Shown piece by piece: positions 45,144-51,129 of a stretch of 64,000 nucleotides of DNA. Position 1 is the first letter of the stretch, and each line of letters starts with the position of its first letter. This stretch comes from Escherichia coli. GTDB lineage: Bacteria > Pseudomonadota > Gammaproteobacteria > Enterobacterales > Enterobacteriaceae. A model generated the notes under the pieces. That model saw only the letters and a list, made by a program, of their open reading frames with translations. It ran no database searches and was not told where the DNA came from. Position numbers and translations under genes: made by a program. The stretch lies in assembly GCF_001677475.2 (NCBI RefSeq), contig NZ_CP015229.1, one strand, 5' to 3'.

Positions 45144-45671
45144 TTATTGATAAGTAAACGTAAACTGCACAACAGTATGGAATTCACCTGCCGTGACCGT
45201 ACCGGTAGGTGTATACATCCGTGCAGCAAGTGGGAAGGTCGCTTTTCTACTGGCCTGGTCGACGTTTACCGTCATTTTACCATTCGGGCTAATTTCCGTT
45301 ATGTGGTCATCCGTCATAATCTGCAGCGCCATCCCGGTGGCATCCCCAAGTGTATTCGCGAACTTCGTCTGGTCAACAAGATCGCTTTCCCCGGTAAACA
45401 ACGCTGTAACACTGCTTGTTGATGCAGGGCAAGAAGATAAATTCAGACTAAAGTTCTGCCACTCACTGGTATGGCCGACCGTGTCGTAATTAACGGCTCG
45501 CGCCTGCTCAAACCTGACAGTTTGATCCTTCGTTTGTGTGTCTATGACACATGCTGATGCTACCACCGTGCCATTAATGTTAATATCAGCCGCTTGGGCA
45601 GAGTGAAATGCACATAAAGGCCAGAGCGTTACCAGTAAGGTAAAAATTGTGGCACTTCGTTGAGTAATCAT
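45144..45671 (-). CDS. Fimbrial minor subunit (FimA-family pilin), distal gene of the accessory operon
   Basis: 175 aa; signal peptide; Cys pair (ASACV...SSCP); C-terminal strand ...VQFTFTYQ typical of chaperone-usher pilins. Confidence 0.75.
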   Translation of the reverse strand: MITQRSATIFTLLVTLWPLCAFHSAQAADININGTVVASACVIDTQTKDQTVRFEQARAVNYDTVGHTSEWQNFSLNLSSCPASTSSVTALFTGESDLVDQTKFANTLGDATGMALQIMTDDHITEISPNGKMTVNVDQASRKATFPLAARMYTPTGTVTAGEFHTVVQFTFTYQ

Positions 45672-45685
45672 GGCGCTAGCACCTG

Positions 45686-46210
45686 TTACTGATAAGTAAA
45701 TGTTGCCTGAACCAGGCCGGTGATTGAACCAGGCATCACATTTCCTTTCGATACAGCCCGCGTACGAAGCTGAAGGTCATAGGCGTGAGAACCAGGAATA
45801 GGGGTATTATTGATTGATGAACCATTACCCAACGTTGTAGAACCATCCTGCGTAGTGAGCTCAAGAGAGAGGTTAGTTGCTGAACCAGTATTGGCGTAGT
45901 TTGTGGCAATATCACCGTCCGGCGTACCAGAGAAAGCGACGCTAAAGCTGGAGGTTGAGAGTGGGCAATTGGTTAATTGCAAAGAGAAGTCTTTCCAGGT
46001 GGATGCGCTTCCCGCAGCCGAAAGAGAATCCGCCTGAATATTATCGCCAATATTTACATTCACGGCACTATTCCCACCATTAACGACGCACGGAGATGCC
46101 AGTACTAATCCATTAATATTGATATCTACCGCATTAACGGAGGAAGCCCCCAGAAGACTGCTGGCGATAACAAATATTATAAACTTACGCTTCCATATTA
46201 TATTCATCAT
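45686..46210 (-). CDS. Fimbrial minor subunit (FimA-family pilin), paralogue of the distal gene
   Basis: 174 aa; signal peptide; shares VDININGLVLASPCVV motif with the 45144..45671 product; C-terminus ...VQATFTYQ. Confidence 0.75.
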   Translation of the reverse strand: MMNIIWKRKFIIFVIASSLLGASSVNAVDININGLVLASPCVVNGGNSAVNVNIGDNIQADSLSAAGSASTWKDFSLQLTNCPLSTSSFSVAFSGTPDGDIATNYANTGSATNLSLELTTQDGSTTLGNGSSINNTPIPGSHAYDLQLRTRAVSKGNVMPGSITGLVQATFTYQ

Positions 46211-46216
46211 TTTTCC

Positions 46217-47212
46217 TTAATTATATTGTACAGTAAATTGCAATGCGGATTTTACCTCGCCGGTGGTTATGTTATTAACATCGTCAATGTAATAAGCTAC
46301 TTTATATTCGGGTATTGTATAATCACCTGAGCCGATATAATTCAATGCAAAGTTATTGTTAAACTGATCGAATCCGCTTCCATCGGGGTTTTGAAATTGC
46401 ACATATACGCCTTGCGCATAACCGGTTCCGGTCTCACCGTTCATCACGCCATCCACCGAGCCGTGAGTTCCGTATAAGGCGCTAAATTTGTAAGAGATAC
46501 CCGTAATTGCGCCCGGACAATTTGTTAATGTTATTGTAGGTATTGGCGTAGCCAGTTGTGCCCCACTAACTGCATTACCGCCATAAAGTGTTGTAAGGTT
46601 CACTTCTTTTGGAGCATTTATTATGCATGGCGTCATGGTAGGCTGCGAAGAAACTCCTGAGCGTGCAAGAAATGATTTATCCGAATAAGTGCTTCCCGGC
46701 GGGTTGTGATAATTTAATGTGACGTCAGGAACAGTGACAAGAGGTCCTGGCGGTATCTGCTCTGTAAGACGAACTAATTCATACTTGATGTGTAGGTAAC
46801 CACTCTTGCTTAAACCTTCCGGGAAAGTCAGCGTGTGAGGTGCTGCTTTCGCCAAATTTGGTGTGGTATCTGTTGGGGTTGAAAAATTGAGTTGATATGC
46901 AATGCCAATACCTGGATTGCTAGTTTGATATATGGTTGCTCCGTCGCCCGTTGTTCCGACCACCGTCCCATTTACTGTAAGATCGGCATATGCACTGCCA
47001 GAACCTCCGGACGCGATATTGATCCAATAAAATTTATTCCAGTCATCAAACCAGGTTGTTCCACCTACACTCGTTGGTATGCTCCACGTTGAAAAATCAT
47101 GAGGGTAAGTGACTACCTGTGCAGTATCAGTCTGAAATTGCGATGCTGTTGTTGTTAACGGCAGTGATGCAATGCCTGAGATAAGAAAGATGATTACCCT
47201 TTGTTTATTCAT
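46217..47212 (-). CDS. Putative fimbrial tip adhesin (N-terminal receptor-binding domain plus C-terminal pilin domain)
   Basis: ORF 46217..47257; start set at MNKQRVIIFLISGIASLPL (RBS gagga upstream); about 331 aa, twice pilin length; C-terminal half has pilin Cys pair (CIINAPK...TNCPG) and terminal ...LQFTVQYN; sits directly after the usher gene. Confidence 0.65.
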   Translation of the reverse strand: MNKQRVIIFLISGIASLPLTTTASQFQTDTAQVVTYPHDFSTWSIPTSVGGTTWFDDWNKFYWINIASGGSGSAYADLTVNGTVVGTTGDGATIYQTSNPGIGIAYQLNFSTPTDTTPNLAKAAPHTLTFPEGLSKSGYLHIKYELVRLTEQIPPGPLVTVPDVTLNYHNPPGSTYSDKSFLARSGVSSQPTMTPCIINAPKEVNLTTLYGGNAVSGAQLATPIPTITLTNCPGAITGISYKFSALYGTHGSVDGVMNGETGTGYAQGVYVQFQNPDGSGFDQFNNNFALNYIGSGDYTIPEYKVAYYIDDVNNITTGEVKSALQFTVQYN

Positions 47213-47240
47213 AGCATTGTTTCCTCTTTTCTGGCTCAAT

Positions 47241-49814: not shown

Positions 49815-49843
49815 TACACATCCTTATGCAGTTAAATGGCGTC

Positions 49844-50521
49844 TTACAAAGAAGCGTTGTGTACGTCGCCTGCTGCACCGTAATCACTGATGATTGTCCA
49901 GCTTACATTTCCTGTTGTGTTGGCTGGAATTTGAAATGTCGCACTACTCATAGGAGCAACATATGTGGCATCAGGTAATGCTTTTCCGCCAATCTTGACC
50001 TGACTGAAGTTCATATAGTAAGCAGTTGGGTTGGTGACAGTGATTTGCTGTCCGCTACGTCGCCAGGTCAAATTTTTCACGACTTGTTCTGGTAATGTGG
50101 ACGAAATCTCATGTGGTCGATAAATCAATTTAATTCGCGTTTTAATGGCAATTTGCAAGGTGTTGACATTTTCCTGCTTTTCAGTTGCAGGTATCGTTTT
50201 AATATTCATCCAGTACATCGTTTCGCGATCTGTCGGCAGATTGCCGCCAGCGCGAATAATGCGCAACGCATTTTCTTCAGTGGCGCCCAGGCGGAACAGA
50301 GGGGGGGTAATAATAAAAGGGGCTTTGGCGTTGGTTTGCGGATCTCCATCGACCCATGATTGAATAAGGTAGGAGGATTTATCCGGATTTTTCAGGTGCA
50401 GAGACGTTTCTTTTTTATCGCCATTATAAATAACTCGTGTTCCTCCAACAATGACACCCGCCTGTGCAACAGAGTTGGATAATAACAATGCAGTAGCAAG
50501 AAAATAAGTCGATAATTTCAT
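49844..50521 (-). CDS. Periplasmic fimbrial chaperone (PapD/FimC family)
   Basis: 225 aa; signal peptide; conserved GTRVIY and YLIQSWV motifs. Confidence 0.9.
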   Translation of the reverse strand: MKLSTYFLATALLLSNSVAQAGVIVGGTRVIYNGDKKETSLHLKNPDKSSYLIQSWVDGDPQTNAKAPFIITPPLFRLGATEENALRIIRAGGNLPTDRETMYWMNIKTIPATEKQENVNTLQIAIKTRIKLIYRPHEISSTLPEQVVKNLTWRRSGQQITVTNPTAYYMNFSQVKIGGKALPDATYVAPMSSATFQIPANTTGNVSWTIISDYGAAGDVHNASL

Positions 50522-50537
50522 CTCAAAAACCTTTAAA

Positions 50538-50564
50538 AGGTAAAACCGAGTAACTCGGTTTTAC
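50538..50564 (-). terminator. Intra-operon stem-loop (likely attenuator) between major pilin and chaperone genes
   Basis: Perfect inverted repeat ggtaaaaccgag-taa-ctcggttttacc followed on the minus strand by ttttaaaggttttt. Confidence 0.55.
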
Positions 50565-50595
50565 CTGACGTAATTATATTAAAATCAGGCGTATC

Positions 50596-51129
50596 TTAGT
50601 TATACGCTAACGTAAAGTTCACAGTACCATTTGCACTACCAACCGCTATGGTATCTTCTGTAGCGATATAACGTGCAAAGAAGTCCAGGTTAGTGTCGCC
50701 AGTGCTATTGAGAGCCGTGCTATCAGATTCAGTACCGAGAGGCAGCACACTACCGGAAGAATTCATGAGCTGAATTGCAACACCTTTTGCTACACCGGTT
50801 GTACCGTAATCAGTAACTTGTAAAGCATCCTGATTGATCTGATCCGGAGTACCATCGTATTTAACAGCAACATTTTTGAGCTCATTCGGGCAATTTTTTA
50901 ATACCAGTGTAAATTTGGTATTTGCAGCAGTAGTCCCAGCCGTAGCGTTAAAAGCTGTTTTAGCAATTGTGCCTAATTTCACTGTCATTGGAGATGACAG
51001 CGTACTGTTAACTTCACAGCCTGATTCAATGATATCTCCAATAAAATTTATTTTACCATCATCTGCAGAGGCGACAGAGCTAAGACCAGCGGTTGTTACT
51101 AAAACCAGAGCGGCTAGTTTGAATTTCAT
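50596..51129 (-). CDS. Major fimbrial subunit (FimA-family pilin)
   Basis: 177 aa; signal peptide MKFKLAALVLVTTAGLSSVASA; Cys pair (SGCEV...KNCPN); C-terminal ...VNFTLAYN; first gene of operon with aagga RBS. Confidence 0.8.
   Translation of the reverse strand: MKFKLAALVLVTTAGLSSVASADDGKINFIGDIIESGCEVNSTLSSPMTVKLGTIAKTAFNATAGTTAANTKFTLVLKNCPNELKNVAVKYDGTPDQINQDALQVTDYGTTGVAKGVAIQLMNSSGSVLPLGTESDSTALNSTGDTNLDFFARYIATEDTIAVGSANGTVNFTLAYN

Follow-up and report, generated by a model that had tools for sequence, protein, structure and literature searches.

The stretch of DNA considered here, 64,000 nucleotides of the Escherichia coli contig NZ_CP015229.1 (NCBI RefSeq assembly GCF_001677475.2; hereafter the window), carries between fabF and pabC an intact chaperone-usher fimbrial operon with six genes, type-1-like in kind, read on the minus strand and occupying positions 45144-51129 (hereafter the block). 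Overall, we consider it likely that this operon entered E. coli by recombination from a non-coli Escherichia, and that the AT-richness that sets it apart from its neighbours is a property the allele already had. The case for transfer is made by comparison with other genomes rather than by composition, and the two lines of evidence are accordingly kept apart below.

The fimbrial operon between fabF and pabC

The pilin gene comes first, followed by the genes for the chaperone, the usher, a two-domain adhesin and two minor subunits (Table 1). The PapC N- and C-terminal domains of the usher have E-values of 5e-40 and 8e-21, and its best NCBIfam families are the Sti, Lpf and Fim ushers together with two unnamed usher equivalogs, all of them under the equivalog cut-offs. 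The same holds across the operon: none of the six proteins reaches a curated NCBIfam equivalog cut-off, the scores being 874 bits of 995 for the usher against its best family, 266 of 309 for the chaperone and 105 of 203 for the pilin. The operon is an uncharacterised fimbrial type, and at the same time a member of a well-known kind, for which donor-strand exchange at the usher is to be expected from established knowledge of the family.

The adhesin has no match in the Pfam scan of the operon proteins. Its AlphaFold model has a mean pLDDT of 90.0, and Foldseek matches it over its full length to the two-domain tip adhesins CupB6, FimH, FocH, LpfD and PapG, with E-values from 1e-9 to about 5e-5; the label adhesin therefore stands. 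The open frame of this gene reaches 47257, and public gene calls begin at 47212. The first minor subunit is likewise annotated at slightly different lengths, at 173 aa in most public assemblies that were examined and at 174 aa in L067, a copy of the operon from a non-coli Escherichia to which we return below. A further open reading frame at 51262-51648 (minus strand, 128 aa) was treated as spurious; it has no Pfam match and overlaps both the start of pabC and the control region.

Table 1. Coordinates of the operon genes, control and hairpin elements, and the imported tract in the window
Feature	Position	Strand	Evidence
Minor fimbrial subunit 2, 175 aa	45144..45671	-	Pfam PF00419 E = 4e-15; NCBIfam FimG/FimF-like, below curated cut-offs
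Minor fimbrial subunit 1, 174 aa	45686..46210	-	NCBIfam FimG-like E = 3e-31, below cut-off
Two-domain tip adhesin, 331 aa	46217..47212	-	Structural matches
Outer-membrane usher, 857 aa	47241..49814	-	PF00577 E = 5e-198, PapC_N, PapC_C
Periplasmic PapD-like chaperone, 225 aa	49844..50521	-	PF00345 E = 2e-43, PF02753 E = 5e-14
Major pilin, 177 aa	50596..51129	-	PF00419 E = 6e-19
Divergent control region, pilin gene-pabC	51130..51484 (355 bp)	.	GC 32.7%
Bidirectional intrinsic terminator between convergent fabF and last fimbrial gene	45085..45151	.	Inverted repeat, folding
Perfect 14-nt inverted repeat between pilin and chaperone genes	50538..50566	-	
Imported tract	44764..52317	.	Informative sites, identity profiles, zone identities
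Chimeric pabC	51485..52294	+	Donor-type to ~51934, middle K-12-type, 3' end donor-type

The imported tract and its probable source

Outside the locus the window is E. coli, with an identity to strain K-12 of 99.39% to the left and 99.12% to the right. At the locus itself, a mere 119 bp separate fabF from pabC in K-12, which is the normal state of E. coli sensu stricto, with a terminator of its own and no remnant of the operon in that spacer, and positions 45077-51670 of the window stand in place of 314 bp of K-12. The operon was found in 0 of 5,426 complete RefSeq E. coli genomes by megablast and sensitive blastn; in these genomes megablast matches the end of fabF only, and sensitive blastn finds usher paralogues at no more than 71% identity. 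No match to the operon was present among 72,556 plasmids either. A scan of species-representative genomes also returned no Escherichia carrier, and since that scan requires shared exact 8-residue peptides its result is weak evidence of absence.

Carriers do exist among other public sequences. The exact usher protein occurs in about 25 public contigs, and its 90% cluster has 47 members, filed under the names 'E. coli', 'MULTISPECIES Escherichia', 'Escherichia sp. 93.0816', 'Escherichia sp. MR' and 'E. coli H605'. Three carriers (L002-L004) have E. coli flanks, and one of these, L003 (GCA_033745465.1), is 100% identical to the window across 18.5 kb. Six others (L067, L068 and L070-L073) carry a tract 99.0-99.4% identical to that of the window, set in flanks that are only 96.4-96.6% identical to it on the left and 92.7-93.0% on the right. 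In its core proteins L067 shows 98% identity to E. marmotae and 96% to the window, and the background of the donor-type copies is therefore a non-coli Escherichia.

Several public carriers labelled 'Escherichia coli', L070-L073 among them, have flanks 92.7-96.6% identical to K-12 and to the window. These look like cryptic-clade Escherichia filed under E. coli.

The boundaries of the tract were placed by three-way informative sites (window, K-12 and L068) together with sliding identity profiles. On the left, the sites are of the K-12 type up to 44731, of the donor type at 44764-44854, of the K-12 type again at 44887-44959, and of the donor type from 45007 to 51934; on the right, a K-12-type run at 51961-52103 is followed by a donor-type run at 52108-52317, and the sequence is of the K-12 type from 52318 on. 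The switch points fall inside fabF and at the pabC/mltG boundary, and the tract takes in the 3' end of fabF and most of pabC. A pattern of this kind, mosaic and ending within housekeeping genes, is what marks homologous recombination. Within pabC, identity to K-12 is 50-70% over the first ~360 nt and has risen to 95-100% by nt ~420; PabC is 61% identical to its K-12 counterpart over the first 140 residues and 93% identical over the remainder. The promoter region of pabC has been replaced as well, and in its place stands the divergent, AT-rich control region that belongs to the operon. A search with the N-terminal part of PabC for the ultimate donor returned only partial proteins at no more than 68% identity.

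Horizontal acquisition, which the original prediction had proposed for the fimbrial block on the strength of its composition, is thus supported, by the absence of the operon from the 5,426 E. coli genomes, by its near-identity to copies with divergent flanks and by the sharp switch points. The proof comes from this comparison, and the composition, as discussed below, is older than the transfer; the acquired unit is also larger than the block, a tract of ~7.5 kb extending into both neighbouring genes, fabF and pabC. The data show the following steps. The lineage of the window acquired DNA from a non-coli ('cryptic clade') Escherichia with the operon at the same site. Homologous recombination, with one end of the exchange within the fabF 3' end and the other at the boundary of pabC and mltG, replaced the resident sequence by a ~7.5-kb tract interrupted by two short recipient-type patches.

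Two features temper this reading. The direction of transfer, from the clade into E. coli, is read from the distribution of carriers (0 of 5,426 E. coli genomes against several carriers with divergent flanks) and not from a rooted phylogeny. In addition, the tract differs by 0.6-1.0% from the sampled donor copies, and therefore either the true donor sub-lineage is unsampled or the import is not very recent.

The absence of the operon from nearly all other E. coli might instead be the result of loss, the operon being ancestral at this site and retained by vertical descent in the lineage of the window. Diverged versions do sit between fabF and pabC in at least five other genera and in E. marmotae, and Wurpel et al. 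report fimbrial clusters, termed 'archaic', that E. coli has lost (PMC3559732). Vertical descent, however, leaves unexplained why the tract should be 99.0-99.4% identical to copies whose flanks differ by 3.4-7.3%, why informative sites should switch sharply in fabF and at pabC/mltG, and why the K-12 spacer should hold no remnant of a deletion; we regard it as very improbable. The chance that the operon is a classical mobile genomic island, brought in by site-specific integration or transposition, is slighter still and close to negligible. A compositional deviation combined with presence/absence polymorphism does look island-like, but the tract contains no integrase, transposase, insertion sequence (IS) element or tRNA gene, is not flanked by direct repeats and has no plasmid match, while its boundaries lie inside conserved housekeeping genes and its mosaic patches are typical of homologous recombination.

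If the import from cryptic-clade Escherichia is accepted, the case documents the flow of an intact adhesin operon into E. coli sensu stricto by way of housekeeping-gene flanks. It also shows pabC made chimeric and the promoter region ahead of the pabC-mltG-tmk-holB cluster exchanged; in this cluster tmk and holB are essential genes. We regard this as an ordinary event that happens to provide an unusually clean worked example; it leaves current concepts unchanged, and neither the way in which the operon was gained nor its likely regulation is unconventional.

Two other points emerged from the comparison with K-12 elsewhere in the window. The segment 24838-26514, covering flgE-flgF, is 94.5% identical to K-12 against 98.7% over the adjacent 18.5 kb, and may, judging from these identities, be another recombination patch, in flagellar hook genes. 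A stretch of 110 bp at 5352-5461 is 77% similar to the K-12 flgF-flgG intergenic region (L001 1688-1797) and is probably a dispersed repeat element.

Base composition and the origin of the AT-richness

The observation from which the original prediction set out, that the block is markedly more AT-rich than the fab and pabC-mltG-tmk genes on either side, is real and well beyond chance. The GC content of the block is 0.449 (44.9%), against 0.513 (51.3%) in the remainder of the window and 0.516 and 0.510 in the 10-kb flanks to its left and right, and the lowest value among 46,044 windows of the same length that do not overlap it is 0.475. In 500-bp windows the mean is 0.447 in the block and 0.515 outside (Mann-Whitney p = 1.8e-11). 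All six fimbrial genes lie at the bottom of the per-gene distribution in the window, with GC contents of 0.418-0.475 compared with 0.521 +/- 0.024 for the 52 other genes. At third codon positions (GC3; GC1 and GC2 denote the first and second) the fimbrial genes range from 0.32 to 0.47 with a mean of 0.406, compared with 0.550 +/- 0.043 in the other genes (p = 8e-5). When the block is set against seven flanking core genes, the values are 0.490 and 0.624 for GC1, 0.443 and 0.446 for GC2, and 0.416 and 0.531 for GC3.

Codon usage follows the same trend. The codon-usage distance to the pooled non-fimbrial genes is shifted, 0.460 for the fimbrial genes against 0.314 (p = 0.002). The codon adaptation index (CAI), computed with the weights of Sharp and Li 1987, averages 0.253 in the fimbrial genes against 0.325 (p = 0.02). 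In this index the operon overlaps weakly expressed core genes and is not cleanly separated from them. The pilin gene illustrates the difficulty: it has the lowest GC3 of the operon (0.32) yet the highest CAI (0.351), above the average, because the preferred codons ending in T are themselves AT-rich. With a small shift, an overlap with core genes and a high value for the pilin, CAI was dropped as a discriminator. Dinucleotide composition is similarly distinctive without being unique, the delta* of the block being 60.8 against 36.7 +/- 11.7, and another interval of the window, at rne, reaching 68.8.

Runs consisting of A and T only are more frequent in the block than base composition predicts. 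Runs of at least 8 nt occur at 6.4/kb in 45086-51484, which comprises the block and its two spacers, compared with 2.5/kb elsewhere, and 41 were seen where composition-matched shuffles gave 27 +/- 5. The observation by eye of long runs in the pilin and adhesin genes is only partly right: runs of 16 nt and 13 nt do occur in them, but the densest stretch is the spacer upstream of the pilin gene, with 22.5 runs/kb. This control region also has the lowest GC content of any intergenic region of the window (0.327), and no A/T run in the window is longer than the one of 18 nt that it contains at 51219-51236, so that the AT-rich zone continues ~355 bp further to the right than the block as first drawn.

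Other short patches of low GC (0.37-0.44 in 500-bp windows) occur at 10751-11500, 12501-13500 and 1-750. Most of them fall in long spacers and in regions of small genes, from yceJ to pyrC and ahead of opgG.

What this dip in GC content cannot do is establish transfer. The genomic GC content of the donor genus is the same as that of E. coli, and because donor and recipient share their genome composition the dip is uninformative on that point. The donor-type copy in L067 has an operon GC of 0.452 against 0.531 in its own flanks, and a GC3 of 0.421 against 0.527; since this copy is as AT-rich relative to its surroundings as that of the window, the shift predates the transfer and is not its footprint. 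AT-richness is therefore a property of the operon allele, neither made by the transfer nor a reflection of the composition of the donor genome.

How the allele came by this property can be approached through its homologues at the same site. Diverged six-gene operons lie at fabF/pabC in Citrobacter braakii, Salmonella enterica, Enterobacter quasiroggenkampii, Pluralibacter lignolyticus, E. marmotae and one metagenome contig, with ushers 66-74% identical to that of the window; the best usher match outside Escherichia is 74% identical. In every host the operon lies below its flanks in GC, by 3.3 to 8.4 points. Among 53 related chaperone-usher loci of other Enterobacterales the tendency is weaker, 40 of them being below their flanks, with a mean of -1.9 points. 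It could accordingly be argued that AT-richness is an intrinsic trait of fimbrial genes, imposed by protein composition and low expression and silent on any foreign origin, and the codon positions lend this some substance, in that the deficit in GC1 is as large as that in GC3, with GC2 equal. Roughly half of the deficit is indeed a GC1 trait of protein composition, common to the same-site homologues in all hosts.

The other half behaves differently. The GC3 deficit is -11.5 points in the window (-0.115), -0.106 in L067 and -0.140 in the metagenome copy L059, against -0.6 to -3.3 points in Pluralibacter (-0.006), Enterobacter (-0.026) and Salmonella (-0.033), with E. marmotae at -5.1 points. 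A deficit that varies with the host in this way is not a constant of the family at synonymous sites; the value of ~11 points is specific to this allele lineage. Furthermore, only 9 of the 53 related loci reach a total-GC deficit of at least 5 points, and the comparative evidence for transfer holds independently of composition. An intrinsic trait as the whole explanation is therefore unlikely in our judgement. The GC3 deficit suggests either that the allele has a past, older than this transfer, in a composition unlike that of Escherichia, or that an AT bias has persisted; it would fit an origin in, or long exposure to, a more AT-biased regime.

Control signals, predicted silencing and relation to known systems

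The divergent control region holds promoter-like sites in both directions. A sigma-70-like site for the operon lies at 51250-51223 on the minus strand, 94 nt upstream of the pilin gene's start codon, and a promoter-like site for pabC lies at 51325-51353 on the plus strand. There are no GATC sites in the control region, which makes phase variation of the Pap-like, Dam/Lrp-dependent type unlikely; an invertible switch of the fimS type is also unlikely, no fimB/fimE-like recombinase gene being present.

At the far end of the operon, the strong terminator shared with fabF consists of a 14-bp stem between an A run and a T run, for which folding gives -28.1 kcal/mol (z -7.3) and -24.5 kcal/mol (z -5.8). 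It sits in donor-type sequence, and K-12 carries a different terminator there. Rfam reports a sub-threshold match to the small RNA (sRNA) family RmaA at 45094-45177 (30.7 bits, with a gathering score of 57); this match coincides with the terminator hairpin and most likely does not represent an sRNA. Between the pilin and chaperone genes, the segment 50525-50595, which includes the perfect inverted repeat, folds with -18.9 kcal/mol (z -3.9), and the hairpin probably serves as an intra-operon attenuator or mRNA stabiliser.

A reasonable expectation for the regulation of such an operon is silencing by H-NS. The AT content is 55.1% in the block and 67.3% in the control region, compared with 48.7% in the rest of the window, and 11 sigma-70-like sites fall in the block where the flanks of equal length have 4 and 4. 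It is because of these three properties, genes of 55% AT, a control region of 67% AT and a nearly threefold excess of sigma-70-like sites over the flanks, that repression would be expected. For comparison, the H-NS-silenced E. coli model gene agaB has 56% AT (PMC8894471), the F9 fimbrial operon is repressed by H-NS bound at its promoter and shows an H-NS-dependent thermoregulation (PMC3966885), and cryptic E. coli chaperone-usher operons have been described as H-NS-repressed (PMC3559732). On balance, we favour the view that the operon would be coated and repressed by H-NS under standard laboratory conditions of growth, and expressed only under particular cues.

On the other side stand the counts of motifs and sites. 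The high-affinity H-NS motif TCGATAAATT has no perfect match. Sites with one mismatch are mildly enriched, at 0.31/kb against 0.12/kb, and this enrichment comes down to two sites, at 50117 and 50509; when up to 2 mismatches are allowed, the figures are 1.88/kb against 1.11/kb. The 11 promoter-like sites are what composition predicts, shuffled sequences giving 14.7 +/- 4.0. We infer that promoter-like sites generated by composition are the very situation in which H-NS suppresses spurious transcription.

Selection might instead have kept the AT-richness, the low-GC genes and control region together being the ground on which H-NS confines expression to certain conditions; the composition would then serve regulation and would be no relic. 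The spacers between pabC and the pilin gene suit this idea: in seven hosts they measure 320-410 bp and have 28-34% GC, and they are not alignable (44% column identity), so that it is their composition, not their sequence, that is conserved. The H-NS-dependent thermoregulation of F9 would be a precedent (PMC3966885). Intergenic DNA is AT-rich in general, however, other spacers of the window reaching 0.35-0.38 GC, and in three hosts the coding GC3 has drifted to the values of the host, which speaks against strong selection on the gene bodies. We remain doubtful of this explanation, without dismissing it, and return to import of an already AT-rich allele as the reading that we prefer.

The same-site homologues raise the question of what kind of locus received the operon. 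Usher and chaperone are 65-72% identical in every same-site pair, whatever the relatedness of the hosts. For example, E. marmotae (L064/L065) and the donor clade (L067) share core proteins that are 98% identical and an usher and chaperone that are 69% identical. Three allele types of the 5' part of pabC can be distinguished in Escherichia, those of K-12, of the window and its clade, and of E. marmotae; the N-terminal 140 residues of PabC are 61-71% identical among them, as low as between genera, whereas the C-terminal half is 90-94% identical within Escherichia.

Judged from the E. marmotae and the non-coli L067 backgrounds, the locus seems to be swapped as a cassette.

A literature search found nothing specific on a fabF-pabC fimbrial locus. 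We tentatively suggest, as a possibility short of even likelihood, that fabF-pabC is a hypervariable 'fimbrial cassette' locus across the Enterobacteriaceae, at which very old, deeply diverged alleles pass between species and genera by recombination in the conserved flanks and drag the 5' half of pabC with them, and at which AT-richness, above all that of the control spacer, is kept because it holds each incoming cassette under H-NS control. In this context, the empty state of E. coli would be one allele among several, and not the ancestral one.

Among described fimbriae, the 'EFER_1138 / SARI_01025' archaic type of Wurpel et al. 2013 occupies one locus in E. fergusonii, Salmonella, Citrobacter, Enterobacter and Cronobacter and has left no remnants in E. 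coli (PMC3559732). Its host distribution resembles that of the operon in the window; the text of PMC3559732 gives no position for the locus, and identity of the two is not established. No protein named E. fergusonii appears among the best 120 matches to the usher.

In its components, the operon belongs with the type-1-like (gamma-1 clade) systems Bcf, Lpf, Sti and Fim of Salmonella and E. coli, with which it shares a PF00419 pilin, a PapD-like chaperone and a PF00577 usher. Its adhesin gene directly follows the usher gene, as in lpf, and its minor subunits are FimF/FimG-like, as in type-1-like fimbriae. Unlike those systems, it has no protein at a named equivalog cut-off, and its adhesin is only 10-17% identical to adhesins of solved structure. 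In composition it resembles the cryptic, H-NS-repressed operons, such as F9/yde, yad and the cryptic operons of K-12 reportedly treated by Korea et al. 2010, in being AT-rich both in the operon and upstream of it. Those systems belong to the E. coli core or to whole clades of the species, whereas that of the window is absent from all 5,426 complete E. coli genomes.

In its mode of inheritance, the locus also has parallels outside fimbriae. The O-antigen rfb locus, with the hitch-hiking of gnd, and the capsule loci are hypervariable cassettes exchanged through conserved flanks. The fabF-pabC locus differs from them in its cargo, which is fimbrial and not a polysaccharide cluster, and in being usually empty in E. 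coli; it is like them in having diverged alleles at one site, recombination in the flanks, and a divergence that hitch-hikes into the neighbouring gene, in this case pabC.

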